In this document: one piece after another, positions 17,034 through 62,514 of the stretch | Layout of the letters: the number at the start of each line of letters is the position of its first letter | Position numbering within the stretch: the stretch's first letter is position 1 | From: an uncultured Gammaproteobacteria bacterium | Lineage (GTDB): Bacteria; Patescibacteriota; Microgenomatia; PFEM01; JAPLYW01 | Reading direction: 5' to 3' | Length of the DNA stretch: 64,000 nt | Assembly (NCBI GenBank): GCA_965230945.1 | Contig: OZ246397.1 | Span: forward strand, 539,925-603,924 | Notes under the pieces: generated by a model | Told to the model about the DNA's origin: nothing | What the model saw: only the letters and a program-made list of their open reading frames with translations | Databases searched by the model: none | Translations under genes and position numbers: made by a program

Positions 17034-18128
17034 ATGTCAGAATCAAAGATGCCAAAAGAAAAGGTAGAAATTGAATATTCAGGAACGAATCCTCTTATTA
17101 ATTCAGGAAAAGAGGCAATTGAAAATTACAAAAAAATAGCTGAGGAGAATAAGAAGGATGTTTCTGGAGAAGCTTACAAAAAGGTTCTCAGACAAACGGC
17201 AAGGATTCTCGCAACAACATTACCTCTTCCTCTTCTTACTGCTTGTGCCGCTTGTGAGAAACCACCGGTCGTTGAGGAACAGCAGCAGGAAGAAGGGAAA
17301 GGACAGGAGACAGTTCCTTCTGAAACAGCTGAAACAGAAAAGGAGACTGTTCAGGAAGAAACTCCTCCGGTGGTTGAAGAGACTCCTGAAAAAATTGAAT
17401 GGGAAGGGGTCACCATTTCCCCAGTAGAAGGCTTAAAGTTTGATAAGGGAGATTTCTATTTTATGGAAGGAAATGAATATGGCGGGATACCTGGAGAAAA
17501 AGCAGGAGTTTTGGTTAAAGATGGCTTAGAGGTTAATGGGAAAATGGAAAATGCCATTGGTTTAGATCCAATGGTAATTGAGTTTAAAGAAAAAGAGATA
17601 TTTAAGGAAACCAAAGAGCGTTTATTACCTATTCTTATTGACCTAACCAAGTCTAAGGACGTAAAACTACAGGAATTAAATGCAGCAGGAGCAGAAATTG
17701 GTAGAAAAGTTTTAGCTTTCAATGTTGCTATTGGGACGGAGTTTTTGTCACCTCTTTCTGGAAGTTGGGGTATGTTTAAACCCTTTCCGAATGTTGAAGA
17801 TAAATGCTTTTTTATTAATTGGGATATTGGAGTGGAAGGACAATTGGGTGGGTGGGATATCTATTTTAGAGATGCGGAAGTTTTGGCCAAAATGGAAAAA
17901 GAGGTATCAATTCTTAACCCTAAAGATACTAATAGACAGACTCTTATGGAAACAGAAGTCAAATTAGGCGACCCCTTAGGAAAAATTACAAGTAACACTC
18001 CCTTAGAAGAATTTTCCAAAAGTGGCTGGGGTGATTATCAAATTGTAGCTTTTCTTAAAAATAAAGATAGAATTATGGAAGTTGGTAGCGGAGCTGATGC
18101 TTGCAAGGTTTTTATTTTTAACCAATAA
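17034..18128 (+). CDS. hypothetical protein with a Glu/Pro/Thr-rich low-complexity linker
   Basis: 364 aa with an internal hydrophobic segment ending LLTACAAC (lipobox-like); the C-terminal globular domain has no recognisable motif. Confidence 0.45.
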   Translation: MSESKMPKEKVEIEYSGTNPLINSGKEAIENYKKIAEENKKDVSGEAYKKVLRQTARILATTLPLPLLTACAACEKPPVVEEQQQEEGKGQETVPSETAETEKETVQEETPPVVEETPEKIEWEGVTISPVEGLKFDKGDFYFMEGNEYGGIPGEKAGVLVKDGLEVNGKMENAIGLDPMVIEFKEKEIFKETKERLLPILIDLTKSKDVKLQELNAAGAEIGRKVLAFNVAIGTEFLSPLSGSWGMFKPFPNVEDKCFFINWDIGVEGQLGGWDIYFRDAEVLAKMEKEVSILNPKDTNRQTLMETEVKLGDPLGKITSNTPLEEFSKSGWGDYQIVAFLKNKDRIMEVGSGADACKVFIFNQ

Positions 18129-18189: not shown

Positions 18190-18819
18190 ATGTCTAAAAA
18201 AATTAAAGTTTTTCTGTCCTTAATATCCTTAGTTTCTGTCGTTGCAACTGTGGGGATATTTTTTGATTTTGGTTTTAAAAAATTATTCTTAAAATCAAAA
18301 ATTTTTCCGTCCGAAAATAAAAAAACGGTTATTTCAAATATAACCCCAACCCCTTCTCCCGTCTTGGAATTTGTAGAATTACTTCATCTCCCTGAAGGTG
18401 CTTTAGATTTAACTTTACCTGTTGAAAGAAGTTATTTCGAAGCCATGAAAGAAAATACTCCAAAATATCCTGATGCTATTTCATTTAATCTTAATGAAAA
18501 TGAGGAAGTTAAAGCTATTTTTGATGGAAAAGTTGTGAGTGTTCAATATGTTGATAAGGAAACTATTGGGGATCAACCTAATGATTTTCTTACAATTTGG
18601 ATTGAAAGCAGAGATGAAATGCTAGTAGCTAGTTATCTTGTTGCAGGAGAATTTTTATTAAAAGAAAATGAGGAAATAAGATCCGGAGAAAGCTTAGCTA
18701 GAATTGGGAAAGGGATTGTTCCCTTTAGCAATGATGCTAATTTTAGTTTAACTATTATGAAATTGGAAGATGATGAATATAAAACAATAGCTTTAGATAA
18801 AGGAATGTTTTTACGATGA
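18190..18819 (+). CDS. hypothetical secreted protein
   Basis: N-terminal signal/TM; stop overlaps the start of the next gene (ATGA). Confidence 0.45.
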   Translation: MSKKIKVFLSLISLVSVVATVGIFFDFGFKKLFLKSKIFPSENKKTVISNITPTPSPVLEFVELLHLPEGALDLTLPVERSYFEAMKENTPKYPDAISFNLNENEEVKAIFDGKVVSVQYVDKETIGDQPNDFLTIWIESRDEMLVASYLVAGEFLLKENEEIRSGESLARIGKGIVPFSNDANFSLTIMKLEDDEYKTIALDKGMFLR

Positions 18820-20931: not shown

Positions 20932-21648
20932 ATGTCTAAATTGAAGATTGAACTGAAAGATTTGCTTGATGCGGGTGCTCATTTTGGGCATCAGTCGCAT
21001 CGTTGGCATCCTCAGATGGCTCCTTATCTTTATGGAGCTCGTGATGGTATTCATATCTTTGATTTAGTTAAGACTAAAGAAGGATTAGAAAGAGCCATTG
21101 AATTTGTAAAGAAGACTGTTTCTGAAGGTGGCAAGATTATTTTTGTAGGTACCAAACGTCAAGCTCAAGCAATTATTAAAGAAGAAGCCTTAAAGGCTAA
21201 AATGCCTTTTATCACTGAGAGATGGATGGGTGGTATCATTACTAATTGGGATCATATCAAGTTGTCTGTGGAAAAATTAAAAGACTTAAAAGAAAAGAAA
21301 GAAGCAGGAGAGTTTGAAAAGTACACTAAAAAAGAAAATATTTTAATTGATCGAGAAGTTGCTAGGTTGGAGAGATTTTTCGGCGGCTTGGTTGATTTAG
21401 AAGAATTACCAGCAGCTATCTTTGTTATTGATGTTAAGAAAGAAAAAGCAGCTGTTAAGGAGGCTTCTATGAAAGAGATTCCGGTAATAGCCGTGGTTGA
21501 TTCTAATTCTGACCCTAATTTAATAGATTATGTAATTCCGGCTAATGATGATGCCATTGGTTCAATTAAGCTTATTTCTGAGATGATTGGTCTAGCTGCT
21601 CAAGAGGGTAGAGAAATTTTTGATAAGAAAAAAGTTGATAAAAAATAA
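20932..21648 (+). CDS. rpsB: 30S ribosomal protein S2
   Basis: LLDAGAHFGHQSHRWHPQMAPY..., 238 aa. Confidence 0.9.
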   Translation: MSKLKIELKDLLDAGAHFGHQSHRWHPQMAPYLYGARDGIHIFDLVKTKEGLERAIEFVKKTVSEGGKIIFVGTKRQAQAIIKEEALKAKMPFITERWMGGIITNWDHIKLSVEKLKDLKEKKEAGEFEKYTKKENILIDREVARLERFFGGLVDLEELPAAIFVIDVKKEKAAVKEASMKEIPVIAVVDSNSDPNLIDYVIPANDDAIGSIKLISEMIGLAAQEGREIFDKKKVDKK

Positions 21649-21650
21649 TT

Positions 21651-22133
21651 ATGAAGATTACCTTAGAACAAGTTAAAAAATTAAGAGCTAAAACCAGAGT
21701 TGGTATTATGGATTGCCGTCAAGCTTTAGAAGAATGTGGGGGTGATTTTATTAAGGCCGAGAAATGGCTTAAGGAAAAAGGTTTTAAAGCAAGTAAGAAA
21801 AGAGAAAGTAGAGAAACTTCTCAAGGTATGATTGAAGTTTACAGTCATAGTGATGGCAAGATTGTTGGTATGGTTGAGCTTTTATGTGAGACTGATTTTG
21901 TTTGCCGCAACAAAGAGTTTAAAAAACTGGCTCATGAATTGGCTATGCAGGTAGTTGCCATGAATCCTAAGGATAAAAAAGAACTCTTAAAACAGCCTTG
22001 GATTAGAGATGAATCGCAGACAATTGAAGAGCTGCTTAATAGTTTGATTGCCAAAACCGGAGAAAATGTTAAAATTGGGAGAATAGCTAGGTTTGAACTT
22101 GGGGAAGAACAAAAGAGGGAAAAAGCAAAATAA
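21651..22133 (+). CDS. tsf: Elongation factor Ts (short, 160 aa)
   Basis: N-terminal UBA-like LRAKTRVGIMDCRQALEE; lies between rpsB and frr. Confidence 0.8.
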   Translation: MKITLEQVKKLRAKTRVGIMDCRQALEECGGDFIKAEKWLKEKGFKASKKRESRETSQGMIEVYSHSDGKIVGMVELLCETDFVCRNKEFKKLAHELAMQVVAMNPKDKKELLKQPWIRDESQTIEELLNSLIAKTGENVKIGRIARFELGEEQKREKAK

Positions 22134-22138
22134 TCTTT

Positions 22139-22690
22139 ATGGAATTGACAGAAGTTGGCGATAAAATGGACAGAGTCATTGAGTTTTTTGTCGATGACCT
22201 GCGTTCCCTGCGGGCCGGTCGGGCCAGTCCCTCTTTGATTGAAAAGATTGTGGTTGAAGCTTATGATTCTAAGATGCCTCTAGTGGAATTGGCCACCATT
22301 GTTTCTTCAGATGCCAATCAGCTGACAATTACCCCCTTTGATCAAACAATTATTAGGAATATTGAAAGAGCTTTAAGTATGGATAGAAATTTAGGTTTGA
22401 TTGTTAGGCCTGAAGAGAGTGCTATTAGGGTTGAATTTCCGCCTTTAACAGAAGAAAGAAGGCAAGAATTTAGCAAGCTTTTAAGGCAAAAGGTTGAATC
22501 AGCCAGGGTTATGATCAGACAGATTCGTCATGAGAAGATTACCGAGATAAAAAAAGCTTTTGAAAACAAAGAGATTGACGAAAACAGCAAGTTTAATCAA
22601 GAAAAAGAACTGCAAAAATTGACCGATGAGTTTAATAAGAAAATTGAAGAAATTGGTCAGCAAAAAGAGAAAGAATTGCTTTCAATTTAG
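22139..22690 (+). CDS. frr: Ribosome recycling factor
   Basis: 183 aa RRF signature (DDLRSLRAGRASPSLIEKIVVEAY...). Confidence 0.85.
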   Translation: MELTEVGDKMDRVIEFFVDDLRSLRAGRASPSLIEKIVVEAYDSKMPLVELATIVSSDANQLTITPFDQTIIRNIERALSMDRNLGLIVRPEESAIRVEFPPLTEERRQEFSKLLRQKVESARVMIRQIRHEKITEIKKAFENKEIDENSKFNQEKELQKLTDEFNKKIEEIGQQKEKELLSI

Positions 22691-25343: not shown

Positions 25344-26792
25344 ATGAATGAAAAAGAGAAGGTTAATTTTTCTTCTAAAGAATTAGGAGTTAAGGTGGAA
25401 TCAGATAAAATTTCTGAGTGGTATAATAAAATAATTAAAGAGGCTGATTTGATTGATCAAGGCCCAGCTAAAGGGACGATGGTTTTTCGTCCTTATGGTT
25501 ATGCTCTTTGGAAAGGAGTTCAAAAGAGTCTTGGGTTTAAAATAGAAAAGAATGGGGTTGAAGATGCTTATTTTCCTGCTATAATTCCAGAAAAACTTCT
25601 AGTTAAAGAAAAAGATCATATTGAAGGTTTTTCTCCGGAATTTTTACGTGTTCGAGGTAGAAGTGGAGAAATTGGAGTATTGAGGCCAACTTCCGAAGCT
25701 GTAATGTATCCATTATTTAAGAAGTGGATTCAATCTTACAGAGATTTACCCCTTAAAGTAAACCAGTGGTGTAATGTTTTTAGAGATGAGTTAAGAACGT
25801 ATGCTTTAATACGCACTTCTGAATTTCTTTGGCAGGAGGGTCATTGCGTGTATGCTTCAGCAAAGGAAAACGAAGAAGCAGTGATGGATTTTTTAAATAT
25901 GTATAAGAATTTTTTTCGTAATACTCTTGCTGTATCTCCTATTTTTGGGAAAAAAAGCGAAAAGGAAAAATTTGCAGGAGCTTTATATACTACAACTGGC
26001 GAAGCAGTTTTACCAGGAGGGAAAGCTCTTCAAGTTTGTACTTCTCATAATTTAGGGACAAATTTTGCAGAAGCCTTTGATATACAATTTTTAGGTAAAG
26101 ATGGCAAACAACATCACCCATATCAGACAAGTTGGGGTTTAAGCTGGCGGGTTATTGCCGCGATGATTATGAGTCACGGTGATAAAAAAGGGCTTATTTT
26201 TCCACCAGAAATGGCCCCTACGCAAGTAATAATTATACCTATTAAAGGTTCATCTGATGAAGTAGTTATGGAAGCAGCAAAATCTATAAAAGAAAGATTG
26301 TCTGATTTGAGAGTTGATATAGATAAGTCAGATGCAAGGCCAGGAGCTCGTTATAATTATTATGAACTTAGAGGAGTACCTTTAAGGATTGAAATTGGCG
26401 CCCGTGATATTCATAATAATCAGATAATAGTTGCAAATCGATTAACTGGTGATAAAAAAGCTCTGCCTTTAGGTGGTCAGCTTAGAAAAGGCATACAGTT
26501 GTCATTAACATCAATACAAGAGTCTTTATTAAAGAAATCTGAAAGTTTAGTTAAAGAAAGTACCAAAGATGTAAAGACATGGGAAGAATTTAAAGAGATT
26601 CTTAATAAAAATGGAGGTTTTCTGAGAACTTATCACTGTGGAAATAGAGATTGTGAACAACAAATTCAGGATGAAACAAAAGCAACATTAAGATGTATCC
26701 CTTTCGGTTATGAAAAATCAGAGGGAAAATGTGTTAGATGCGGAAAACCATCTAATTATGGTCAAAAAGTACTTTTTGCTAAGGCCTATTAG
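25344..26792 (+). CDS. proS: Prolyl-tRNA synthetase, archaeal/eukaryal-type (class IIa) with a C-terminal zinc-binding domain
   Basis: Motif 1 region FRPYGYALW, motif 2 FRDELRTYALIRTSEF, motif 3 GLSWRVIAAMIMSHGDKKG, anticodon-binding domain, C-terminal CGNRDC...CVRCGK. Confidence 0.85.
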   Translation: MNEKEKVNFSSKELGVKVESDKISEWYNKIIKEADLIDQGPAKGTMVFRPYGYALWKGVQKSLGFKIEKNGVEDAYFPAIIPEKLLVKEKDHIEGFSPEFLRVRGRSGEIGVLRPTSEAVMYPLFKKWIQSYRDLPLKVNQWCNVFRDELRTYALIRTSEFLWQEGHCVYASAKENEEAVMDFLNMYKNFFRNTLAVSPIFGKKSEKEKFAGALYTTTGEAVLPGGKALQVCTSHNLGTNFAEAFDIQFLGKDGKQHHPYQTSWGLSWRVIAAMIMSHGDKKGLIFPPEMAPTQVIIIPIKGSSDEVVMEAAKSIKERLSDLRVDIDKSDARPGARYNYYELRGVPLRIEIGARDIHNNQIIVANRLTGDKKALPLGGQLRKGIQLSLTSIQESLLKKSESLVKESTKDVKTWEEFKEILNKNGGFLRTYHCGNRDCEQQIQDETKATLRCIPFGYEKSEGKCVRCGKPSNYGQKVLFAKAY

Positions 26793-26800
26793 TATTTTCT

Positions 26801-27571
26801 ATGTTTATGGAATGTAGTAGTAAATTAACATTGTCAAATATTCCTTCCGATTATCCACTTCCTAACCTTTATTATTTCTCTTCCAAATTTTTAACAGAAA
26901 TTCGTAAACAGGTGACAGGTGCTGTTTCAATTTTAAATCAAAATGGTTTTGAAGAATGTCATTTCCCTTTTTTAGTTCCGAGAAGCCTTTTATTGTATTA
27001 TAAGAACTTAATATCTTTGGAAGATTTTATAAAAGTATATTCAGGGAAAGATAAGCGATCATATGCTTATTTGAGACCAGATGGTGTGTTTAGTCAAGGG
27101 ATCACTTTAGCAAAAGAAATGATTAAGAGTTATCGTAATTTACCCTTGAAATTATTCGAAGTATCCCCAAGCTATAAAAGATTAAAGAACAAAACCAAAG
27201 GGAATGTCTTTACTTCTCCAGAAGAGTCTTTTTCTATACAAGGTGGAGTATTTATTGAGGATAAAGACGAAAATGAATTTCTTCAGACGATTATTTCTAG
27301 AATTCTAAATAACTTCTCAATACCGTATATAGCCAAAAATAATAAATTATGTAAATATGGGGGAATAAATTATAGCACTCTTTTTAGTGACAATGAGATA
27401 AATCTCGCTAAAATTTGTGTTTTTGATCAAGAAGTTACTCGGGAAGCAAACATTTATTTTTTTAATAAAGAGGGAAGGAGATCTTTTCCATACATGTATA
27501 GCTTTAGCTTATCTCAAAACATTTTTTTAATTAGTCTTTTAAAAAATGAAAGAATAGGATTAGAAAAGTGA
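26801..27571 (+). CDS. ProRS-like paralog truncated to the N-terminal catalytic region (256 aa); no anticodon-binding or Zn domain
   Basis: YAYLRPDGVFSQGITLAKEMIKSYRNLPLKLFEVSPSYK parallels the proS segment [37 protein letters not shown]; very AT-rich. Confidence 0.55.
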   Translation: MFMECSSKLTLSNIPSDYPLPNLYYFSSKFLTEIRKQVTGAVSILNQNGFEECHFPFLVPRSLLLYYKNLISLEDFIKVYSGKDKRSYAYLRPDGVFSQGITLAKEMIKSYRNLPLKLFEVSPSYKRLKNKTKGNVFTSPEESFSIQGGVFIEDKDENEFLQTIISRILNNFSIPYIAKNNKLCKYGGINYSTLFSDNEINLAKICVFDQEVTREANIYFFNKEGRRSFPYMYSFSLSQNIFLISLLKNERIGLEK

Positions 27572-28995
27572 ATAACATATCAGAAGAGAAATTGATAGAT
27601 TGGCTGAAGTTTTATGTTAACTTTGGTGATATAGTAAATGATGATTTTCCTACTAAAGGAGCTTGTTCTTGGTACCCTTATGGATATTCTTTAATGAAGA
27701 ATATCCTTCATTTAGCATCAAATATTTTAATTAAGAAAGCTAAGTTTAAAGAGATTGTTTTACCATCTTTTGTTCATGGTGAAGATTTCATGAAAGAATG
27801 CAAAAATATAAAAGATTTTAGTGAACGTGTATATTGGTCGCCATTATATAGAAAAGACGATCTACATGTAGTAACTCCTACAATTGAAGCACAGTTAGGT
27901 GCTCTTTATAATAAATGGCTACAAGCAAATAAAAAACTTCCGTTTAAGTATTTTACGATAAGGGGAGTAGGTCGTTATGAAACTGGAAGGACAATTCCTT
28001 TATGGAAGGAACGTAACGTTTGGCCTTTTTTTGAAGGGTTAACGGTTCATAGTTCTTCATCTGATTTTTTAGCTACCATAAAACAACAAATAAATTTTAT
28101 GGAAGTTTTTTTTGAAGAACTTGGAATTCCTGTTTTAATCCTTGAAAGACCTAAGATTAATTCTCGTTTGTGTGAATATTCTGAGCGAAGAATAGAAGCT
28201 GTTACGATAACTAAAGATAAGAGGGTTGTAATACTAGCAAATATATATGATTTAGGAGAAATATTTAGTAGAGTATACGATATCTTTTATATCGTTAAGA
28301 ATACTAAATATTATGCCTTAACTTCTGCGATAGGTTTATCTGGTAGGGTGTTGGCTACCTTGTTGACTATAAATGGCGATAAAGATGGTTTTATTCTTTC
28401 TCCAATGATTGCTCCAATTAAGTTAGCGATATTACCAATTTATAATAAACCAGCTTTTACTAAGCTAGCAAAAAAGATAGAAGTTTATTTAAGTAAAAAA
28501 GGTATAGTTTCAAAGAATTTTCCGGCTGTGTCTTCGTTGGGAGAGAGGAGAAGAAAAGTAACAGCAATGGGGATACCTTTTTTAATAGAGATTGGATCAA
28601 ATGAAATAAAAAGCTCGTCAGTATTAATAAAAGAACGTGTTCTTACTCATAATTCTACAGAATGTGAAATAAAAGAAATACCTTATATTATTAAGAAACG
28701 AGGCAAAATAATGAATAAGTTTATTAAGCAGAAAGCATTTAAAGAATTCAATTTACTTACTAAGTCTGTTAAGTTAAAGAAAAATTTTCTTTATTGCCTT
28801 AAAGATGAGATTTTAACAGAATCATTTTTTTGTAATAATCCAAATTGTTATAATAAAATGGCAGAATTGTCAAATAGAGAAATAATTGGTCGTAATTATA
28901 AAGCTAAAATAAATAAAAAATCTAAATGTATAGTTTGTGGAAAAACAGCATCTCAAGGTATTTATTTTGGTATTAAATGGAAGGGAGAAAAGTGA
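27568..28995 (+). CDS. Full-length divergent ProRS-family paralog (475 aa: catalytic, anticodon-binding and Zn-ribbon domains)
   Basis: PTKGACSWYPYGYSLMK, VTPTIEAQLGALYNKWLQANKKLPFKYFTIRGVGRYETGR (motif 2 altered), GLSGRVLATLLTINGDKDG (motif 3), SPMIAPIKLAILPI, C-terminal CNNPNC...CIVCGK. Confidence 0.6.
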   Translation: MNNISEEKLIDWLKFYVNFGDIVNDDFPTKGACSWYPYGYSLMKNILHLASNILIKKAKFKEIVLPSFVHGEDFMKECKNIKDFSERVYWSPLYRKDDLHVVTPTIEAQLGALYNKWLQANKKLPFKYFTIRGVGRYETGRTIPLWKERNVWPFFEGLTVHSSSSDFLATIKQQINFMEVFFEELGIPVLILERPKINSRLCEYSERRIEAVTITKDKRVVILANIYDLGEIFSRVYDIFYIVKNTKYYALTSAIGLSGRVLATLLTINGDKDGFILSPMIAPIKLAILPIYNKPAFTKLAKKIEVYLSKKGIVSKNFPAVSSLGERRRKVTAMGIPFLIEIGSNEIKSSSVLIKERVLTHNSTECEIKEIPYIIKKRGKIMNKFIKQKAFKEFNLLTKSVKLKKNFLYCLKDEILTESFFCNNPNCYNKMAELSNREIIGRNYKAKINKKSKCIVCGKTASQGIYFGIKWKGEK

Positions 28996-29923: not shown

Positions 29924-31057
29924 ATGGGGCCTTATCAGGCGAAGCCAGGCGGTGTTATTTCTTATTTAGGCAATAAGATTTATCCTCCAGTTGAGGATGT
30001 ATTAGCTGTTTCTTGGCCACCAAAAGATTTAGTAGACAGAGTTGGATCTATTTATCGAGATAAGAAGTGGTACCACCTGCATAAAATTGATGCCTCAATT
30101 TTTACTGCTACGACACAATTCTTCCAAAGTATAAATGCTGATTGGGTTAATCTACCTCTTACCACTATGATGATTTCTTCTCCTGGTGAAGTTTATGCTG
30201 GACAAAGACTAAATTACACAACAGATACTTTACCTATGGAAATTCCTAATTGGTTTCATACTGGTAATAGAGTGTTTCTTTCAGAATCTTCACAGTTTTA
30301 TCTAGAATTAAGATTAATAATTGATAAGCTGGATAAAGTTTTTTCGATTTATAATTCTTTTAGGAAGGAAAAAGCTGATGCTACTCATTTATCAGAATTC
30401 CAACATGTTGAGTTTGAAGGACATGTTAATTTCAAAAATAACATAAATACTTTTATCAATTTGATTAATTATATTTTAAATTTTCTTTTACAAAATAACG
30501 AAGATAATTTATCTTTTTTTCTTGAAGATCAAGATATAAATGAATTATCTCGAAGCATGAAAAAGATTTTTAAGGTTCCGTTTGTCGAAATTTTAAAAGT
30601 TCTTTTTAAGGAAACTGGAAATAATAAATATAAAGAATTTTCAATGAAGAATTTTGGGTCGTGGGAAGAAATTTTTATTACTCAGATTTACGGCGGTAAT
30701 GTGTTAGCTCTTAATTTCCCTATGTTGCAGATCCCTTTTTATCATGAAATAAGTAAGAAAAAAGTTGGGGGTGTTCCTGTAGCTGAAAATGCAGATTTAA
30801 TACTTCAAGGATATAGAGAAACTGTTGGGAGTGGATTAAGAATTACAGATCCAAAGGCTTTGGCAGAAAAAGCAAAAATTTTTAATCTACCTATAGATGA
30901 CTATAAACCTTACCTTGAGACACGTAAGATGAAGAAATATAAAACATCGGCTGGTTTCGGTTTAGGTTGGCAAAGATTTACGCAATGGATTTTAAAATTA
31001 CCATATATTTGGGAAACAACCCCAACTCCTCGTGGACACACAAAACCAAGGCTTTAA
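29924..31057 (+). CDS. Standalone class IIb aaRS catalytic core (AsnA / AsnRS-AspRS-like); no anticodon-binding domain
   Basis: Motif 2 FSIYNSFRKEKADATHLSEFQHVEFE, motif 3 SAGFGLGWQRF, C-terminal IWETTPTPR (compare AsnRS IRDVIPFPR). Confidence 0.6.
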   Translation: MGPYQAKPGGVISYLGNKIYPPVEDVLAVSWPPKDLVDRVGSIYRDKKWYHLHKIDASIFTATTQFFQSINADWVNLPLTTMMISSPGEVYAGQRLNYTTDTLPMEIPNWFHTGNRVFLSESSQFYLELRLIIDKLDKVFSIYNSFRKEKADATHLSEFQHVEFEGHVNFKNNINTFINLINYILNFLLQNNEDNLSFFLEDQDINELSRSMKKIFKVPFVEILKVLFKETGNNKYKEFSMKNFGSWEEIFITQIYGGNVLALNFPMLQIPFYHEISKKKVGGVPVAENADLILQGYRETVGSGLRITDPKALAEKAKIFNLPIDDYKPYLETRKMKKYKTSAGFGLGWQRFTQWILKLPYIWETTPTPRGHTKPRL

Positions 31058-39909: not shown

Positions 39910-41137
39910 AATGAGGGTTAAGTTGAATTTACGTTCTGCCAGATTAATAATTTTTGTTTTTTTACTAACTGCCATTTCCGGTGGTTTAGGTTTTTTCTTA
40001 GGTACTCATCGAGTTAAGGTAGAGCTTGCCAAATTTCCTTCTCTAAAAATTGAAAGAAAAGTTCCCCAAGATAAACAAGAAGTTGATTTTTCTTTGTTTT
40101 GGGATGTTTGGGACAGATTAGAAAAAGACTATCTTGATAAAAATGCTCTTGATCCATCTGAGATGATTTATGGGGCTATTCGGGGAATGGTAGCTTCCTT
40201 AGGTGATCCTTACACCGTCTTTTTAAAACCCCCAGAGAAAAAGGAGGTAAAAGAAGATCTTAATGGGGCTTTTGAAGGCATTGGTATTCAGTTAGGTTAT
40301 CAGGATGAACAAATGGCGGTTATTGCTCCGCTTTCGGGCACGCCTGCTTTTAAAGCCGGGCTTAAAGCGGGTGACCTCATTTTGAAAATCAATGATCAAC
40401 CAACTAATAATATCTCTCTACCTGAGGCAGTTCGTTTAATCCGTGGTCCTAAAGGAACAGAGATTGTTTTGACTTTACTTCATAAAGGAGAGACGGATCC
40501 TTACAAGGCTAAAATCATTAGAGATACGATTATTGTTCCCAGTGTGAAGGTTGAATTTATAGGCGATAAAGAAGATATCGCTCACTTAAAACTTCTAAAA
40601 TTTGGTGATCGTACCTCTGGAGAATGGCATCAAGCCATTTCAGATATTCTTGCTCATGACCCTCAAGTTAAAGGTATTATCCTTGATGTTCGCAACAATC
40701 CTGGTGGTTATCTTTCCGGCTCTGTTTTTATTGCTTCAGAGTTTTTAACTTCAGGAGTGATAGTCCAGCAGGAATACAATGGAGGGGAGAAGAAAGAGAC
40801 TTTTTCTGTTAATAGGGCAGGTAAATTAACTACACAGCCTTTGGTAGTTTTGATTAATAAAGGTAGTGCTTCGGCATCAGAGATTGTGGCGGGGGCTTTG
40901 CAAGATTACAAACGAGCTACCATTGTGGGCGAGAAAAGCTTTGGTAAGGGAACAATTCAAGAAGCCCAGGACTTGCCTGGAGATACCGGGCTACATATTA
41001 CCACCGCGCGTTGGTTACTGCCTTTAGGCTCATCGATTAATAAGATAGGAGTGACTCCTGACAATGAAATAGCAGATAATCTAGAGACAGAAGATATTGA
41101 CGAACAACTGCAAAAGGCCATAGAGTTATTAGAATGA
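39902..41137 (+). CDS. ctpA: C-terminal processing peptidase (S41, CtpA/Prc-like) with a PDZ domain
   Basis: PDZ GIGIQLG...GDLILKIND; catalytic-region motifs INKGSASASEIVAGALQD and FGKGTIQ. Confidence 0.8.
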   Translation: MFKMRVKLNLRSARLIIFVFLLTAISGGLGFFLGTHRVKVELAKFPSLKIERKVPQDKQEVDFSLFWDVWDRLEKDYLDKNALDPSEMIYGAIRGMVASLGDPYTVFLKPPEKKEVKEDLNGAFEGIGIQLGYQDEQMAVIAPLSGTPAFKAGLKAGDLILKINDQPTNNISLPEAVRLIRGPKGTEIVLTLLHKGETDPYKAKIIRDTIIVPSVKVEFIGDKEDIAHLKLLKFGDRTSGEWHQAISDILAHDPQVKGIILDVRNNPGGYLSGSVFIASEFLTSGVIVQQEYNGGEKKETFSVNRAGKLTTQPLVVLINKGSASASEIVAGALQDYKRATIVGEKSFGKGTIQEAQDLPGDTGLHITTARWLLPLGSSINKIGVTPDNEIADNLETEDIDEQLQKAIELLE

Positions 41138-42315
41138 ATACCAAAGTAATTGACAGAATAAAAAAGATTATTATTGGTGTTGCTGTTGCCGTTGTCGTTT
41201 TGTCCTCTATTGTCGGGGGAGCCATTTCCGATCGTTTGTTTGGCTATAGAATTCTTGATCGCTTCTTTCCCAGATCAGAGACAATACCTGCTCTGACTTC
41301 ACGGTTAATATTAACTGAAGAATCAGTAGTTATTGATGTTGTCGAAAAAGCAGGACCTTCGGTAGTGACCATTGTTATTGAAAAAGAGCAGAAAGAAATA
41401 TCTCCCTTTGCCATTGAATTTGGCCCTTTTGGTTTAAACATTCCTGAAGTTGAAACAGAGACCAAACAAATTAAAGAAAATATTGGCACCGGTTTTATCA
41501 TTTCCCAAGATGGTTTAATTGTTACCAATAAACATGTGGTCATTAACAAAGAAGCCAAATATAAAGTTCTTACTAAGGATGATAAAGAATATGAAGTAAG
41601 TAAGATTTATCGTGATCCGGTAAATGATTTGGCTATTTTAAAACTTGATGGGGCAGTAAATCTCCAGCCAATAAAGATGGGTGATTCTGACAAATTAAAA
41701 GTGGGGCAGTTTGTTATTACTATTGGTACCGCTTTAGGAGAATTTAAAAACACAGTGACGACGGGAGTTATCTCAGGATTAGGTAGAGGTATTACGGCGG
41801 GTTCAGCATTTGAAGGTTTTGTTGAGCGTTTAGATAATGTTATTCAGACTGATGCCGCCATTAATCCTGGTAATTCAGGGGGTCCGCTCTTAAATTCAAT
41901 TGGACAGGTTATTGGTATTAATGTCGCCATTGCCGCCCAAGGACAAAATATTAGTTTTGCTATTCCTATTAATACTATTAAAGAAGCCATTGAGAATTTT
42001 AACAGAACTGGCAAGTTTGAAAGAGCGTTCTTAGGTATCCGTTACCGTTTAATTAGTCGTGATATCGCCTTGATGAATGATGTTCCTCAGGGAGTCTATG
42101 TGGTGGAAGTTATTTCAGGTTCGGCAGCTGATGAAGCTGATATTAAGGTGGGAGATATCATTACTGAGTTTGATGACCAAAAGATTAGAGAAGAGGAGAA
42201 GACTTTAGCAGAGCTGATCTCTAAAAAGAAGATTGGTGATACGGTTAAGCTAAAGATCTGGCGAGATGGACAAGAGCTAGAAAAGAAGGTTGTTTTACAA
42301 GGTTATGTAGAATAG
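41134..42315 (+). CDS. htrA: HtrA/DegP-family serine protease with a PDZ domain
   Basis: Trypsin-fold His (TNKHVV), Asp (NDLAILK), Ser GNSGGPLLN; C-terminal PDZ. Confidence 0.8.
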   Translation: MNTKVIDRIKKIIIGVAVAVVVLSSIVGGAISDRLFGYRILDRFFPRSETIPALTSRLILTEESVVIDVVEKAGPSVVTIVIEKEQKEISPFAIEFGPFGLNIPEVETETKQIKENIGTGFIISQDGLIVTNKHVVINKEAKYKVLTKDDKEYEVSKIYRDPVNDLAILKLDGAVNLQPIKMGDSDKLKVGQFVITIGTALGEFKNTVTTGVISGLGRGITAGSAFEGFVERLDNVIQTDAAINPGNSGGPLLNSIGQVIGINVAIAAQGQNISFAIPINTIKEAIENFNRTGKFERAFLGIRYRLISRDIALMNDVPQGVYVVEVISGSAADEADIKVGDIITEFDDQKIREEEKTLAELISKKKIGDTVKLKIWRDGQELEKKVVLQGYVE

Positions 42316-42317
42316 CT

Positions 42318-43031
42318 TTAGTTCTGAAACTTTTTAAGAATTTTATCCAAGTTACCGTTTAAAATACTTTCTAAGTTATGGAAAGATTTTTTGAGTCTGT
42401 GGTCTGTGATTCTGTCTTGGGGGAAATTATAAGTTCTTATCTTTTCCGCCCTCATACCTCGGCCGATAAAGGAGCGATAACCGGAAATGGTGGATTCTTT
42501 TTTCAGTTCTTCTTGTTCCCAAAGTTTAGATCTTAATAATTCTAAGGCGATTTGGCGATTTTGTTCTTGAGATCTTTCTTGTTCACAAACAACTACGGTA
42601 TTTGTTGGTTTATGAATCAAGCGTACGGCACTGGAAACTTTCTGTACATTTTGACCACCCTGAGATGAGGCTCTAAAAAACTGCCATTCTAAATTAGCGG
42701 GATTGATTTTTATCTGACTTTCACTAATTTCTGGTAAAACAGCCACCGTAGCCGTGGAGGTGTGAATTCGTCCATATCTTTCTGTTTTAGGGATTCGCTG
42801 GACTCGGTGTACTCCAGCTTCGTTTTTTAAAAGTTCAAAGCTATCTTTTCCCTTGATACGTAAGGTTGCATTGCCGATCAGTTGTGTTTGCCAGTTTTGT
42901 TTTTCAGCAAAGCGTAAATACATTCTCAATAAATCTTGAGCCCAGATTTTAGCTTCATCACCGCCGGCAGCGGCCCTAATTTCTAAAAGAGCACGATCTT
43001 TATTAAATAATGGTGAACTTGATTGATCCAT
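42318..43031 (-). CDS. prfA: Peptide chain release factor 1-like protein lacking N-terminal domain 1 (237 aa; domains 2-4 only)
   Basis: GVHRVQRIPKTE (PxT codon-recognition tripeptide, RF1-type), GGQ (SSQGGQNVQK), C-terminal RTYNFPQDRITDHR. Begins 8 nt after the rpmE stop, leaving no room for domain 1. Confidence 0.7.
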   Translation of the reverse strand: MDQSSSPLFNKDRALLEIRAAAGGDEAKIWAQDLLRMYLRFAEKQNWQTQLIGNATLRIKGKDSFELLKNEAGVHRVQRIPKTERYGRIHTSTATVAVLPEISESQIKINPANLEWQFFRASSQGGQNVQKVSSAVRLIHKPTNTVVVCEQERSQEQNRQIALELLRSKLWEQEELKKESTISGYRSFIGRGMRAEKIRTYNFPQDRITDHRLKKSFHNLESILNGNLDKILKKFQN

Positions 43032-43039
43032 GGAGATAA

Positions 43040-43327
43040 TTATTTGTCTAACATTTCTTTTAGGCTTTTAGGACGAGTTGTTTTAGCCTCTTTGACTTTT
43101 TCTTTTCTCTTATGAGGAGTGCTTTTAACGGCCTCTTGTTTGGCTTTGAATTTTTCAATACGGCCTTTAGTATCAACAAACTTCATTTCTCCGGTAAAGA
43201 AGGGATGGCAAGCAGAACAAATCTCAACATGAATGTTGGGTTTGGTTGAACCCACGGTGAAACTAGACCCGCAGGCACAGGTTACTTTTGCATCTGGATA
43301 CCAGGCAGGATGAATACCTTTTTTCAT
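43040..43327 (-). CDS. rpmE: 50S ribosomal protein L31 with a basic C-terminal extension
   Basis: [10 protein letters not shown]...CxxC...[10 protein letters not shown]. Confidence 0.85.
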
Positions 43328-43411
43328 GCCTAAATTTTACCATAAAAAAATCTACCTCACAAGGTAGAATTAGGTGTTGTTTTTTTATCTTTTGCTTTCT
43401 ACAATTAGGTT

Positions 43412-54298: not shown

Positions 54299-55429
54299 AT
54301 GAAAGACTTTTTTGAAGTTTTAAAAAAAGATAAAAAAACTAAGGCTAAAAGAGGTAGGTTAAATACAGCTCATGGCCAGATTTTAACCCCAGCCTTTGTG
54401 CCGGTAGGAAGTCAAGCGACAGTGAAGAGCCTAAGTTCAGAAGATTTAAAAGAGATTGGTACTCAGGTATTGTTTGTTAATACTTACCATTTATATTTAA
54501 GACCGAAGGTAGATTTGATTAGAAAGCTTGGTGGCTTACATCGTTTTATGAATTGGTCAGGGCCAATTATGAGTGACAGTGGAGGCTTTCAGGTTTTTTC
54601 TCTAGGAAGATTAGAAAATCAAGTCAAAATAGATTATTATGGGGTCACTTTTTATTCTCATCTTGATGGTTCTAAGCATTATTTTACCCCCAAAAAATCA
54701 ATTGCAATCCAAAAAAAATTAGGAGCAGATATGATGGTTGCTTTTGACGAATGCCCTCCTTACCCGGTGGAGCATGATTATGCCAAGTTGGCTATGGAAA
54801 GGACTCATCGTTGGGCCAAGCAGAGTTTAAGAGCGGCCGAAAGTAGGTCTCATCAATTTCTTTTTGGTGTTATTCAAGGGGGTGTTTTTCAGGATTTAAG
54901 GATAGCTTCGACGAAGTTTATCTCTTCTCTACCTTTTGATGGGTTGGCTATTGGTGGGGTGGCTGTTGGTGAGTCAAAAAAGGAAATGCTTCAGGTATTA
55001 GATTGGGTGATGCCGGTTTTATCTTCTTTAAAAAGTTTTAAAAAGCCAGTTCATCTTTTAGGAGTAGGGGAGGTGGATGATGTTTTTAAAGCCGTAGAAA
55101 GAGGAGTTGATATGATGGACTGTGTTATGCCGACTCGTTTGGGCAGGATGGGCCATATTCTTTCCAAAAAAGCCAAAGATTTTAAATATGATGTTACCAA
55201 GGTAAAATTTGCCGATGATTTGAGACCCTTAGATGAAAATTGTCATTGTTTTGTTTGTCAGAATTACTTTCGGGCTTATCTTCATCATTTGTTTAGATCC
55301 AAAGAACTTTTAGCTTACCGTTTGGCTACTTATCATAATCTCTACTTTATGGAAGACCTTTTTGCTAGAATAAGAGAGGCGATCAAAAATGATTGTTTTA
55401 AAGAATTAAAAAGAGAATGGCTAAAATAA
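54299..55429 (+). CDS. tgt: Queuine tRNA-ribosyltransferase
   Basis: Catalytic Asp motifs (SDSGGFQ, VAFDEC) and the zinc site CHCFVCQNY...H. Confidence 0.9.
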   Translation: MKDFFEVLKKDKKTKAKRGRLNTAHGQILTPAFVPVGSQATVKSLSSEDLKEIGTQVLFVNTYHLYLRPKVDLIRKLGGLHRFMNWSGPIMSDSGGFQVFSLGRLENQVKIDYYGVTFYSHLDGSKHYFTPKKSIAIQKKLGADMMVAFDECPPYPVEHDYAKLAMERTHRWAKQSLRAAESRSHQFLFGVIQGGVFQDLRIASTKFISSLPFDGLAIGGVAVGESKKEMLQVLDWVMPVLSSLKSFKKPVHLLGVGEVDDVFKAVERGVDMMDCVMPTRLGRMGHILSKKAKDFKYDVTKVKFADDLRPLDENCHCFVCQNYFRAYLHHLFRSKELLAYRLATYHNLYFMEDLFARIREAIKNDCFKELKREWLK

Positions 55430-56274
55430 AAAATAATTCTTATTATCGAAAAAAGAGACGGACAAGAAAAAAGAAGAGTAAGTTTGCTTGGGTAGGACGG
55501 TTTTTTTTAATCCTTTTGGTGGTTCTTTGCTTGGGTTTGGTTTTTAGGCTTTATCAGTCGGTTAATCGTAGTCTTTGGAAAGGTGATAGCCGTTTTAATT
55601 TGGTTTTTAATTCCGCTCCGGTTTTAGTTGCTTCTTTTGATTCTTTTGAGAATAAGGTAGATCTTTTACTTATTCCTCAAGGGACTTTTATTGAAGCTGT
55701 TCATGGTTATGGTCCTTGTCGGGCAGAATCAATTTATCGTCTGGGACAGTTAAATAATCAAGGGGGAGATTTTCTTTCGTCTAGCTTGCAAAACTATTTA
55801 GGATTGCCTATTGACGGTTATCTGTTGACTTCAGAGGTTAGTTTCCAAAAAGATGATAATTCTTTTTTAAAAAGTTATTTAGTTAAAAATTTGTCCTTTT
55901 TTTCAAAAAAAAGACAAGAAACTAATCTCAGTAACTGGGATTTAATTCGCCTTTGGTGGCATTTTAGAAAAATAAGGCCGGACAAATTTAATCTTATTGA
56001 TCTTAGTCAAACCCAGGCTTCAGAAAAGATTCTCTTGGCTGACGGAAGTAAGGCTATGAAGATTGATCCTAAGCGCTTGGAGTTAATTATGGTTCAGTTT
56101 TTTGCTGATAGAAAAATTAAGGAAGAAGGCTTAACGATTTCTATTTTGAACAGCACCTCTCATTTTGGTTTAGCTGCTAAAGTGGCCAATTTAATTAAAA
56201 ACATTGGCGGACGAATTGTTAAGGTAGGGGAGTTGGAAAAGTCAGGCTTGAATGATGATGATTTTAATTGCTAG
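55417..56274 (+). CDS. LytR-CpsA-Psr (LCP)-like cell-envelope protein
   Basis: N-terminal basic region and TM; LCP-like central segment (LIPQGTFIEAV...GLPIDGYLL). Confidence 0.5.
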   Translation: MAKIKNNSYYRKKRRTRKKKSKFAWVGRFFLILLVVLCLGLVFRLYQSVNRSLWKGDSRFNLVFNSAPVLVASFDSFENKVDLLLIPQGTFIEAVHGYGPCRAESIYRLGQLNNQGGDFLSSSLQNYLGLPIDGYLLTSEVSFQKDDNSFLKSYLVKNLSFFSKKRQETNLSNWDLIRLWWHFRKIRPDKFNLIDLSQTQASEKILLADGSKAMKIDPKRLELIMVQFFADRKIKEEGLTISILNSTSHFGLAAKVANLIKNIGGRIVKVGELEKSGLNDDDFNC

Positions 56275-59333: not shown

Positions 59334-60734
59334 ATGAAAAAAATAATATCCGTCGGTTATGAAATCCCTGGAAATTCTGATTTATACATACCATATTCTT
59401 CAAATAAATCATTATTAGACAGTGAAATAGTTATTTTCTGTCCAGAGTTTAAAGATTATGATGTGGATTATATTAATAGCTCTTACCGTGGGAAGATTTT
59501 ATATTCGGAAGATGGGACTTCCAATCTAAAAGAAGATACTAATCATTGGAAAGATGAGTTGGATATTTTACTTAAAGATGGTAAAACGATATTTGTTTTA
59601 TTAAAAAGACTTGAGGAATTTTATATCCATACTGGTGAAAAGAATTTTTCAGGAACTGGGAAAAATGCAAGAATCACAAATATTGTCACAAATTATGATA
59701 ATTACCATTTTCTCCCTAGTATTGATTTATCTTTAGCGCCGTCTACTGGTAAAAAAATCAAATTTCCCGGTAATCCAATCTTCTCAGTCTTATGGAAAGA
59801 TTTTTCCAAGCATTTTGAGTATGAAAATTATATTAATGAAAACATAAAGGATCCTTTATTTACAACAGAGACAGGCAAAAAAGCAGTTGGGAGTATTCAT
59901 AAAATTGGGAAAGGTTATCTTATTTTATTACCGATGATAAATTATGACGAAGATAAGTTTGTTTATTATGATAAAAAGAAAAAAGAACCATACTGGACTA
60001 AAGAAGCAGTAGAATTTGGCAATAGATTAATAAAAGACTTTATAGAAATAGATAAAGCCTTAAGTGTTGTCTCTGGTCTTACTCCTCAACCTGACTGGGT
60101 TAAATCGAAGAAATATCAATTTATTACCGAAGTAGAATTACAAACTCAGATAGACATAATTGATTCAAAGATAAAAGATTTTATCCAAAAAAAACAGAGC
60201 CTTCAGGAAAAAATAAATAAAGAACAAGAATTAAAAATGCTTCTATATGAATCTGGGAAACCTCTTGAGAGAGCAGTTGTTAATGCTTTAAGGAAAATTG
60301 ACTATAAAGCAGAAAATTTTAAAGAAGGCGATTTGGAAATTGATCAGTTAATTGTTTCTCCGGAAGGAGATAGATTTATTGCTGAGACTGAAGGAAAAGA
60401 TAATTCTCCAATAAATATAGATAAGATTAGACAATTATCTAGTAACATTCAGGAAGACTTGGCTCGAGATAAAGTATCTAAAGCTGCTGACGGTATACTA
60501 TTTGGGAATGGTTTTAGGTTAATTGTGCCAGAAAAAAGAGATTTACAGTTTACTGAGAAGTGCCAATCAATTGCAAAAAAGTTTAACTATATTCTTATTA
60601 CAACCGATTCTTTATTTTCGGTTGCAAGATATCTTAAGGAAAACAAGAACACTGATTTTGCCAAGAAATGTAGAAAGAAAATTTTATCCAGCAAAGGAAC
60701 TATTGTTAAATTCCCATCCATACCCAAAAAATGA
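59334..60734 (+). CDS. hypothetical protein (466 aa); the C-terminal region has a possible PD-(D/E)xK-like nuclease motif
   Basis: AT-rich; central coiled-coil; C-terminal EGDLEIDQLIVSPEGDRFIAETEGK resembles a D...(D/E)xK core. Confidence 0.4.
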   Translation: MKKIISVGYEIPGNSDLYIPYSSNKSLLDSEIVIFCPEFKDYDVDYINSSYRGKILYSEDGTSNLKEDTNHWKDELDILLKDGKTIFVLLKRLEEFYIHTGEKNFSGTGKNARITNIVTNYDNYHFLPSIDLSLAPSTGKKIKFPGNPIFSVLWKDFSKHFEYENYINENIKDPLFTTETGKKAVGSIHKIGKGYLILLPMINYDEDKFVYYDKKKKEPYWTKEAVEFGNRLIKDFIEIDKALSVVSGLTPQPDWVKSKKYQFITEVELQTQIDIIDSKIKDFIQKKQSLQEKINKEQELKMLLYESGKPLERAVVNALRKIDYKAENFKEGDLEIDQLIVSPEGDRFIAETEGKDNSPINIDKIRQLSSNIQEDLARDKVSKAADGILFGNGFRLIVPEKRDLQFTEKCQSIAKKFNYILITTDSLFSVARYLKENKNTDFAKKCRKKILSSKGTIVKFPSIPKK

Positions 60735-60991
60735 AGCCAGTATTGAAATTTGTAGACTTTGGTAAGTAGTGTATAAATTGACAAAACAAGGATATAATAT
60801 TATACTTGCTTTCGCCTATTGATAAATAGGTTTTTTGTTCTTTAACAACAAGTTAAGAGGGAGAAATTCATGGGAGAAAATAAAGACAGCAATGTAGTTG
60901 ACTTTTTTATCGCGAAAGAAAAGCTTGAGCGAAAGAAAGGCAATTTATTACTTATTTGGTTTATCGATTTATTAATAAATTTTTTTAAGGG

Positions 60992-61402
60992 GTGGCAAAG
61001 ATGAAAAAAATAAAGAAGAAGAGAGAAGGTATAAGTCCTGGTCCTTACTTTATTTATTTAGTAATGCTGATCGGTGTGTCTCTTTTTATCTTTACAGGTA
61101 TTTATTTGTTATTAAGTTCTTCTGTAGACTATGATTTTGCAGGTTTTATTATCCTAATCAGTTTTTTTCTGATTTTTTTCGCTCGTTCATTCTCTGAAGA
61201 GTTTGATTTTTCATTGTTACGTTTAGGAGTTAGGGTTTTGTTAATTATCATAGTTGTTTTTAGTTCAGCTTTCTTTATTTGGGGTATGATCATAGGTGCC
61301 AAAGATATCATAAATGGAGCTTTTCTTGCTTTCCTTTTAGCCTCGAGCGGCTTTTTAGTTAAAGAGTATCTTTTTAAAAGGAAAAACGAGACTCCTTTCT
61401 AG
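60992..61402 (+). CDS. hypothetical small membrane protein
   Basis: 136 aa, 4 TM helices. Confidence 0.4.
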   Translation: MAKMKKIKKKREGISPGPYFIYLVMLIGVSLFIFTGIYLLLSSSVDYDFAGFIILISFFLIFFARSFSEEFDFSLLRLGVRVLLIIIVVFSSAFFIWGMIIGAKDIINGAFLAFLLASSGFLVKEYLFKRKNETPF

Positions 61403-61521: not shown

Positions 61522-62514
61522 TTGCCTTTACTCTTACAATGTCGTACAATATTTTTAATGCCCGAAGAGAAGAAAGAAACTAAGCGTACTGAAGTTGATC
61601 GTCTCATTGAAGAGTTCTTAGAGTACCTCGAGATTGAAAAGAATTCCTCTCCCCTAACCGTTCGTAACTACAAACATTATCTTACTCGCTTTTCTGAATG
61701 GCTAAAGAAGGATCACTCCAAGCCTGACTCAGGTTCAATTACTTTAGAGGTTGTTAAAAAATATAGGGTATATTTATCCCGATTTACAGCCCTAAATGGG
61801 GCGCCTTTATCCCGTGTCACTCAAGGCTACCATGTGATAGCTTTAAGGGCATTCCTGCGCTGGTTAATAAAAAATGACTATAAGACACTTAGCCCAGAGA
61901 AGATTGACCTCCCCAAAGCTAAAAGCCGCTCTCTAAAGTTTCTTACTACAGAGCAGGTAGAGCGTCTTTTGTCTCAACCCCAGATATCAAAGCCGAGAGG
62001 GCTACGTGATAAGGCCATCTTAGAGATGCTCTTCTCTACTGGCTTGCGGGTCAGTGAATTAGTGAGGCTTAATCGGGATCAAATTGACTTTAATCGTCGA
62101 GAGTTTGGTGTTATTGGTAAAGGAGGTCAAGCTCGGGTGGTATTTCTCTCAAAAGAGGCCGCAGAATGGCTTAAAAAGTACCTTGAGAGCCGAACCGATG
62201 CTTGGAAGGCCTTGTTTGTAAGATATATAGAAAAACCGGAGGTTATCGAGAGTGGTCAGAAGATGAGATTAACTGTCAGAACGATACAACGGATCGTTAA
62301 AAAGTATGTAAGGAAAGCAAGACTACCTGTAGATGCCAGTGTTCATACACTCCGTCATTCTTTTGCCACTGATTTACTTATGGCCGGGGCTGATATTAGA
62401 AGTGTCCAAGAACTTCTTGGTCATAAAAACATTTCGACCACTCAAATCTATACTCACGTCACCAATAAAAAACTTAGAGATGTTCATGAAGCCTTTCATG
62501 GTAAAGGGAAATGA
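61522..62514 (+). CDS. xerC: Tyrosine site-specific recombinase, XerC/XerD type
   Basis: N-terminal SAM-like core-binding domain (EEFLEYLEIEKNSSPLTVRNYKHYL); catalytic R (GLRVSEL), HTLRHSFAT, LLGH, Y in IYTHV. The likely ATG is at 61561. Confidence 0.8.
   Translation: MPLLLQCRTIFLMPEEKKETKRTEVDRLIEEFLEYLEIEKNSSPLTVRNYKHYLTRFSEWLKKDHSKPDSGSITLEVVKKYRVYLSRFTALNGAPLSRVTQGYHVIALRAFLRWLIKNDYKTLSPEKIDLPKAKSRSLKFLTTEQVERLLSQPQISKPRGLRDKAILEMLFSTGLRVSELVRLNRDQIDFNRREFGVIGKGGQARVVFLSKEAAEWLKKYLESRTDAWKALFVRYIEKPEVIESGQKMRLTVRTIQRIVKKYVRKARLPVDASVHTLRHSFATDLLMAGADIRSVQELLGHKNISTTQIYTHVTNKKLRDVHEAFHGKGK

Follow-up and report, generated by a model that had tools for sequence, protein, structure and literature searches.

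A release factor 1 without domain 1 at the rpmE-prfA locus of a Microgenomates bacterium

The stretch of DNA considered here (the window) comprises 64,000 nucleotides of contig OZ246397.1 (positions 539,925 to 603,924, forward strand; assembly GCA_965230945.1), from an uncultured bacterium deposited as a gammaproteobacterium and placed by GTDB in the Patescibacteriota (Microgenomatia; PFEM01; JAPLYW01). The bacterium, an ultrasmall member of the candidate phyla radiation (CPR), encodes prfA', a homolog of peptide chain release factor 1 (RF1) of 237 residues that consists of domains 2, 3 and 4 and has no domain 1. Most probably, this protein is the organism's orthologous and functional RF1 (prfA), which has lost domain 1 in the course of evolution. 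The domain-1-less RF1 is apparently a real, conserved form that has gone undescribed so far. Domain 1 is thought to aid delivery of the factor via bL12 and uL11 and communication with RF3, and to our knowledge nearly every RF1 and RF2 described to date has it.

Identity of the shortened protein

A sequence-only reading of the window had described the gene as an RF1 homolog that starts inside the canonical protein and misses the whole of domain 1, and profile searches bear this out. On the minus strand, the match to RF1 begins at about residue 100, covering positions 104-338 of the 347 in the NCBIfam prfA model NF001859 (306.5 bits, E=2e-91). In Pfam, the PCRF profile (length 194) aligns over positions 99-194 alone, and the RF-1 (GGQ) domain is complete (positions 2-116 of 116); the C-terminal domain noted in the same reading is present. 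The equivalog cutoffs for prfA are not reached (306.5 versus 400 bits for NF001859; 298.8 versus 423.25 bits for TIGR00019) because model positions 1-103, a third of the model, have no counterpart. Ranked by model, the protein scores 306 bits to prfA, 216 to prfB, 59 to prfH and 48 to ArfB, and its matches in the PDB place RF1 (1e-70) ahead of RF2 (1e-42). Residues 11-235 align to residues 85-320 of Thermotoga maritima RF1, a solved structure (E=1e-70), and residues 7-234 to residues 101-338 of Thermus thermophilus RF1.

The residues for stop-codon reading and peptidyl-tRNA hydrolysis are retained. The tip of helix alpha5, the PxT tripeptide anticodon and the GGQ motif have counterparts in T. 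thermophilus RF1 (Table 1), and the PKT and GGQ motifs reported earlier lie at residues 81-83 and 125-127. Alignment to the RF1 of structures 4v63 and 4v4r identifies the other stop-reading residues, Q78, E84, H90 and T91, as equivalents of T. thermophilus Q181, E187, H193 and T194. Across 66 aligned RF1 sequences of the truncated, short and canonical forms, 31 functional residues are invariant; G23, G24, E26, Q78, P81, T83, E84, H90, T91 and GGQ do not vary. The RF2-type SPF tripeptide anticodon does not occur in the loop, which reads PKT, and the prfB model scores 90 bits under prfA. From its sequence we infer that the 237-residue protein releases peptides at UAA and UAG like a canonical RF1.

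Beyond these motifs, the protein resembles canonical RF1 (TIGR00019 / NF001859) throughout domains 2-4, with 44-48% identity to the T. thermophilus and T. maritima proteins over the stretch in common, in the alpha5-tip G..E and the equivalents of Q181, H193 and T194, and in its linkage to rpmE. The differences are the absence of the N-terminal helical domain 1, about 100 residues in canonical RF1, and, across the clade, the absence of a 10-residue beta-hairpin in domain 2, the segment GRGMRAEK in place of GxGDRSEK and a strongly basic core.

All three stop codons are in use in the window (TAA 31, TAG 17, TGA 15; GC content 35.6%), so that the code is standard and RF1 activity is required. An altered or broadened codon specificity, extending for example to UGA and leaving the shortened protein as the only class I factor, would fit the lack of prfB in the 64-kb window, and RF2 has not been located for the clade. 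However, the RF1-specific recognition residues are all unchanged, and TGA is the stop of 24% of the genes, a usage for which bacteria normally need RF2. The absence of prfB from 64 kb is also expected by chance in a genome of roughly 0.6-1 Mb, a size estimated from relatives with contigs of 615-864 kb. A change of specificity therefore has very little probability. A metagenome scan for RF2 genes of the CPR, made with an AT-biased back-translation of the SPFD...RRHTSF motif, gave 120 loci, of which those inspected look Bacteroidota- or SAR11-like and none is recognisably from the CPR. N-terminal length is canonical in these 120 RF2 loci, save for cuts at contig ends, broken frames and cases without an anchor match.

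The predicted structure agrees with a complete set of domains 2-4. AlphaFold2 models the protein with a mean predicted local distance difference test score (pLDDT) of 90.7, and the score falls below 50 at residues 1-4 only. The model superposes on domains 2-4 of ribosome-bound RF1 with a template-modelling (TM) score of 0.86-0.87 and a root-mean-square deviation of 2.1-2.3 Å, and free RF1 in its compact crystal forms is a poor match to it (TM ~0.55). As the first beta-strand of domain 2 starts at residue 13 of the model, the N-terminus is predicted to be a mere 12-residue tail.

Domain 1 is not encodable at the locus, as had been proposed from the stop codon of rpmE 8 nucleotides upstream, because the upstream frames are closed and the space is taken by rpmE, the gene for ribosomal protein L31. 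The nearest in-frame stop lies 12 codons upstream of the prfA' ATG with no start codon between, and the two other frames are full of stops. An adjacent or frameshifted N-terminal domain, which would have spoken against the earlier description, was looked for by three-frame translation of the upstream DNA, and none is present there. No Shine-Dalgarno-like motif occurs in the 8-nucleotide spacer, which makes translational coupling likely, and prfA' is probably co-expressed and translationally coupled with rpmE. The rpmE-prfA junctions of relatives have either a spacer of 6-20 nucleotides or a 4-nucleotide overlap.

Table 1. Positions of the shortened RF1 gene, its functional motifs and its upstream features in the window
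Feature	Position	Strand	Description
prfA'	42318..43031	minus	237-residue RF1 with domains 2, 3 and 4 only; ATG start, TAA stop
GGQ motif, G125-G126-Q127	42651..42659	minus	Peptidyl-tRNA hydrolysis motif; equivalent to T. thermophilus 228-230
PxT tripeptide anticodon, P81-K82-T83	42783..42791	minus	CCT AAA ACA; equivalent to T. thermophilus P184-V185-T186
Helix alpha5 tip, G23-G24-D25-E26	42954..42965	minus	GGC GGT GAT GAA; equivalent to T. thermophilus G116-E119, reading the first stop-codon base
rpmE-prfA' spacer	43032..43039	minus	8 nucleotides separating the rpmE TAA from the prfA' ATG; coding-strand sequence TTATCTCC
rpmE (ribosomal protein L31)	43040..43327	minus	95 residues; Pfam PF01197, E=2e-29; leads the unit of two genes, rpmE and prfA'
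Sigma-70-like promoter match	43334..43362	minus	TTGTGA-17-TAAAAT, extended TG; sole match in the 84-nucleotide gap upstream of rpmE

Distribution of shortened and intermediate forms

The same short protein recurs in a group of relatives. Among the best 120 matches taken from a homolog search over 5.8 billion proteins, identity ranges from 70 to 95%, every sequence is 222-238 residues long, and the first residue is always M, V or L. The anchor EIRAGxGGxEA is found in 116 of them, never more than 16 residues from the N-terminus and at residue 9 in 103. All 120 carry GGQ, and 119 carry PxT (PTT in 75, PKT in 18). The window protein itself does not occur in the contig index searched; the nearest cluster of homologs is 95% identical and has a member (P0276) on a 615-kb NCBI contig. 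Named homologs come from Candidatus Shapirobacteria, Woesebacteria, Microgenomates or 'Patescibacteria group' metagenome-assembled genomes (MAGs), and they are annotated as 'PCRF domain-containing protein', 'hypothetical protein' or, by the NCBI Prokaryotic Genome Annotation Pipeline (PGAP), 'peptide chain release factor-like protein'. Many are found on multiple independent contigs, from ENA, JGI, NCBI and Logan.

These homologs bear directly on whether the gene reflects faulty assembly, a wrongly called start or the decay of a pseudogene. Metagenome-derived genomes do hold such errors, but the boundary is identical in 120 homologs from the assemblies of all four sources, the frame is intact, the 31 functional residues are invariant, the fold is predicted with confidence, and rpmE directly abuts the gene. 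An artefact is therefore exceedingly improbable. Because the same form is conserved across a group of relatives, the shortened RF1 is not an error; on the evidence of these homologs, it is a natural conserved form in a Microgenomates clade. The truncation, for which the earlier reading had proposed a look at orthologs, is common to all 120 closest homologs and to the syntenic loci.

Conservation extends to the surroundings of the gene. In two relatives with 72% identity, one of them on an 864-kb contig, the short prfA follows rpmE at a distance of 6-20 nucleotides, and the flanks are those of the window: convergent HtrA-like and CtpB-like protease genes, S18-SSB-S6 and YchF. The order rpmE-prfA is found at loci L001-L007 of the set compared and at many further loci, and L31 is the operon partner in every relative examined. 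The locus is ancestral, since genes for canonical RF1 likewise adjoin rpmE in other CPR bacteria, Thermodesulfobacterium, Saganbacteria and others.

More distant relatives were drawn from two samples. In a 50%-identity representative search, the whole clade collapsed and mainly short-domain forms were gained. A species-representative genome scan with a universal motif listed 80 genome matches, among which close relatives are under-sampled (the best match listed is 67% identical). Measured as residues from the first start codon to the anchor, together with the open codons upstream of the anchor, the proteins fall into three classes: without domain 1 (about 6-12 residues), short (about 64-85) and canonical (about 110-120), the last of which includes every non-CPR bacterium sampled. 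Truncated loci have only 8-33 codons open upstream of the anchor, and wherever rpmE adjoins the gene, the rpmE stop lies 5-29 codons before the anchor, with the exception of L009 (39 codons).

Two loci of the short class, L005 (P0122, 303 residues) and L006 (P0125, 331 residues), have an RF1 N-terminal region of 73-76 residues, with rpmE upstream and hisS nearby; the neighbourhood of L006 also holds CtpB/S41 peptidase, S18, SSB, S6 and YchF. By alignment, these short RF1s are missing all of helix 1 of domain 1 and half of helix 2, the first. The region is predicted in P0122 to form a two-helix hairpin (residues 2-28 and 30-54, pLDDT 96-98) attached by a disordered linker. In addition to these two, the intermediate class of 64-85 residues is represented at L012, L014, L015, L022, L023, L026, L045, L052, L070 and L076. 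This 'half domain 1' class of RF1 in the CPR also appears to be undescribed. Domain 1 has probably been lost stepwise, from the canonical form of about 112 residues through a two-helix hairpin of about 75 to none, in keeping with the general shrinkage of the CPR translation machinery.

A second, separate loss is suggested by a neighbour-joining tree of the shared core. The window protein stands beside Woesebacteria-type truncated RF1s, within a Microgenomates group that otherwise has a short domain 1 (64-83 residues in Daviesbacteria and Microgenomates Gr01). A second cluster of fully truncated proteins lies apart and contains Liptonbacteria, Parcubacteria GBS-2, Patescibacteria MAGs and OY970354.1, an 829-kb complete chromosome (loci L007, L016, L017, L027, L029, L032, L044, L047, L051, L061 and L071). 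The spacing from RMY to GVHRVQR in domain 2 is 37 residues in the Microgenomates type, truncated and short alike, versus the canonical 47 in the second truncated group. As the tree and this domain-2 indel agree, complete loss of domain 1 seems to have occurred at least twice, independently. A coupling of the loss of the domain-2 hairpin to the loss of domain 1 was considered and rejected, because the second truncated group keeps the hairpin.

The intermediates and the second loss also bear on a split prfA, in which domain 1 would be a separate small gene elsewhere whose product joins the core in trans. Nothing direct speaks for such a gene, though domain 1 is a helical module with a loose attachment, and similarity searches can easily miss small helical open reading frames (ORFs). 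No adjacent candidate exists, the operon partner being L31 wherever relatives were examined; the intermediates shrink in cis, and two lineages lost the domain independently. It is thus hard to give a split gene more than a slight chance.

Changes in the core accompany the shortened form. The segment before RTYNFPQ reads GRGMRAEK in 91 of the 120 homologs, compared with the usual GxGDRSEK. Net charge of the core is +13 in the window protein and averages +10 in 19 truncated proteins versus 0 in 39 canonical cores, and domain 1 of canonical RF1s contributes about -8. Among loci with a GC content below 45%, mean core charge is +8.1 without domain 1, +3.6 with a short one and +1.7 with the canonical one (Mann-Whitney p=0.002, for samples that are phylogenetically non-independent, so that the trend is only a lead).

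Related factors and a possible mode of action

Shortened release factors are known from other settings, which raises the question of whether prfA' is an extra, specialised paralog, PrfH-like or of the rescue type, with a normal full-length prfA elsewhere in the genome. An architecture of domains 2-4 only is that of PrfH (PMC1586002; PMC6514570); only 64 kb of the genome is in view, and PGAP names the homologs 'release factor-like protein'. Yet the PrfH model gives 58.7 bits versus a cutoff of 166.65, as opposed to 306 for prfA, the decoding residues are of the RF1 type and not the altered PrfH set, RtcB is not found in the Pfam-scanned ORFs of the window, and the upstream gene is rpmE. The gene also sits at the ancestral rpmE-prfA locus, which in relatives holds a short or a canonical RF1. 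No second release factor gene was found by tblastn in the window or within 10 kb on either side of 87 related loci, and among the 80 genome matches listed, no assembly has two RF1-type loci. The evidence from the locus and from the gradient of forms makes an extra paralog quite unlikely. The sequence-only reading had likened the architecture to PrfH while calling the decoding motifs RF1-type, and both halves of that description hold; by its score the protein is not a member of the PrfH family, a possibility that the reading had kept in view, and the neighbouring gene is not RtcB.

PrfH (also RF-H, TIGR03072), whose partner is the RtcB RNA ligase, resembles the shortened RF1 in having a codon-recognition-like domain and a GGQ domain without domain 1 (PMC1586002; PMC6514570). 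In contrast, the similarity between the two lies largely in the GGQ domain (residues 104-201 for the 58.7-bit match), and the shortened RF1 has RF1-type decoding residues. PrfH is sporadic and encoded directly downstream of rtcB, whereas the shortened RF1 is vertically conserved at a housekeeping rpmE-prfA locus. ArfB, ICT1 and C12orf65 have the GGQ domain in common with it (ArfB model, 47.8 bits, residues 105-142); however, they have no codon-recognition superdomain and use a basic C-terminal tail to probe the empty mRNA channel, while the shortened RF1 has a full decoding domain.

The closest parallel is an engineered one. N-terminally truncated Escherichia coli RF1 (Mora, Zavialov, Ehrenberg & Buckingham 2003, in the summary of PMC1586002) is essentially the same molecule, performs codon-specific release in vitro without domain 1, works in vivo and supports growth. 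That construct is artificial and has a reported growth cost, whereas the shortened RF1 is naturally fixed and its core has changed as well. The same source gives domain 1 as the least conserved domain of release factors (PMC1586002). By cryo-electron microscopy (cryo-EM), the C-terminal domain of bL12 bridges domain I of RF1 to uL11, a contact made during delivery, and RF1-mediated hydrolysis is slower on bL12-depleted ribosomes (PMC6076264). RF1 engineered to be without domain I is still recycled by RF3 (PMC6076264). Because the E. coli experiments show domain 1 to be dispensable, a working RF1 without it is plausible.

Several points weigh against reading prfA' as the orthologous, functional RF1 that lost its domain 1. 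The function of the shortened protein is deduced from conservation. The view is one of 64 kb, and a second full-length prfA, prfB, prfC, prmC, rplK and rplL could lie outside it. The neighbour-joining tree is simple and crude and carries no support values, the 'open' conformation of the AlphaFold2 model says nothing about dynamics, and both phylogeny and AT-richness confound the trend in charge, which makes it a lead and not a result.

For the 237-residue protein, architecture and residue conservation are observed, and we infer its kinetics, a role for its charge and its independence of RF3. It would bind the A site at UAA or UAG as other RF1s do, and GGQ would switch into the peptidyl-transferase centre via the conserved switch-loop region. 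Recruitment would proceed without the domain-1 contacts to uL11 and to the bL12 C-terminal domain, and any communication with RF3 that depends on domain 1 would be absent. The lost binding energy may be offset in part by the basic core, whose net charge is about +10, compared with about 0 in canonical RF1 cores. Departure from the ribosome would be spontaneous or through subunit rotation.

A bolder and rather doubtful proposition is that termination has been rewired in Microgenomates and, independently, in Liptonbacteria-type Parcubacteria. Docking on the L11/L12 stalk and RF3 would both be dispensed with, and the class I factors, possibly including RF2, would have shrunk to a tRNA-shaped module and nothing more, whose affinity is restored by its basic core. 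If so, these lineages would have the minimal class I release factor with which a cell can live, and the intermediates of 112, 75 and 0 residues would document the dismantling of a universally conserved domain.

A large natural clade with domain-1-less RF1, sister intermediates and a second loss constitutes a natural experiment on the role of domain 1, and its proteins are ready sequences for biochemical and cryo-EM tests. Reduced translation components in the CPR include losses of uL30, bL9 and uL1 and shortened rRNA (PMC9297842), a list to which the shortened RF1 adds a termination factor. Pipelines for annotation and for genome completeness may mis-score prfA as absent in such genomes, because the proteins score under the equivalog cutoffs and carry the names 'release factor-like' or 'PCRF domain-containing'. 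The current understanding of termination is not overturned. A domain-1-less RF1 is not mentioned in the literature searched, which included a perspective on Patescibacteria, a preprint on CPR methyltransferase and PMC6514570, a survey of release-factor evolution that describes canonical RF1/RF2, ArfB and PrfH, and which left most subscription journals outside; release factors are not a topic of PMC9297842, the survey of ribosome reduction in the CPR.

Gene neighbourhood and other genes in the window

Upstream of rpmE, the promoter match listed in Table 1 is one promoter-like site in the 84-nucleotide gap versus 3.3 expected in shuffles, which makes it a positional suggestion only. On the other side, an HtrA-like protease gene (41134..42315, plus strand) is convergent with prfA', and the 3' ends are 2 nucleotides apart, leaving no room for a terminator; at locus L001, the corresponding two ORFs overlap by 11 nucleotides.

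The L31 fold of the window protein takes up residues 1-63 and is followed by a Lys-rich C-terminal tail of about 30 residues (64-95). L31 is 88-120 residues long in the relatives and roughly 66-70 in model bacteria. The tail was considered as a remnant of domain 1 and rejected, since it occurs both where RF1 keeps a short domain 1 and where it has none.

Near the right end of the window lies a tyrosine recombinase gene of the XerC/D-like or phage-integrase family (61522..62514, plus strand), and the ORFs beside it at 59334..61402 have no Pfam match. Five plus-strand ORFs of 256-630 residues have no Pfam match at E<=1e-4 (17034..18128, 18816..20708, 26801..27571, 55417..56274 and 59334..60734).

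Additional aminoacyl-tRNA synthetase-like genes are also present. Two prolyl-tRNA synthetase (ProRS)-type genes lie 0.8 kb apart on the plus strand; the one at 27568..28995 is a normal proS (526 bits versus a 437-bit cutoff), and the one at 25344..26792 encodes a full-length paralog that has diverged strongly (208 bits; E about 1e-7 in Pfam). A 377-residue protein (29924..31057, plus strand) has the class II core of an asparaginyl-tRNA synthetase (AsnRS) without the anticodon-binding domain; it is AsnA-like, of the archaeal asparagine synthetase type, and its scores to the models for asnS and AsnA (108-132 bits) are under all cutoffs.

A 663-residue fusion (13103..15094, minus strand) joins an unusual pair of tRNA-dependent enzyme modules. 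Residues 41-332 are the N-terminal and NADP-binding domains of a HemA-like glutamyl-tRNA reductase (TIGR01035, 162 bits, under cutoff), and residues 364-663 are the core of an archaeal-type non-discriminating aspartyl-tRNA synthetase (AspRS) that has no OB anticodon-binding domain (237 bits to NF003483, under cutoff). The fusion adjoins a genuine bacterial AspRS of only 459 residues (11718..13097), and the organism is unlikely to make haem.

Another half-size translation factor is encoded within the S2 - EF-Ts - RRF cluster (20932..22690): EF-Ts (21651..22133, plus strand) has only 160 residues, which match positions 2-146 of the 293 in the tsf model.

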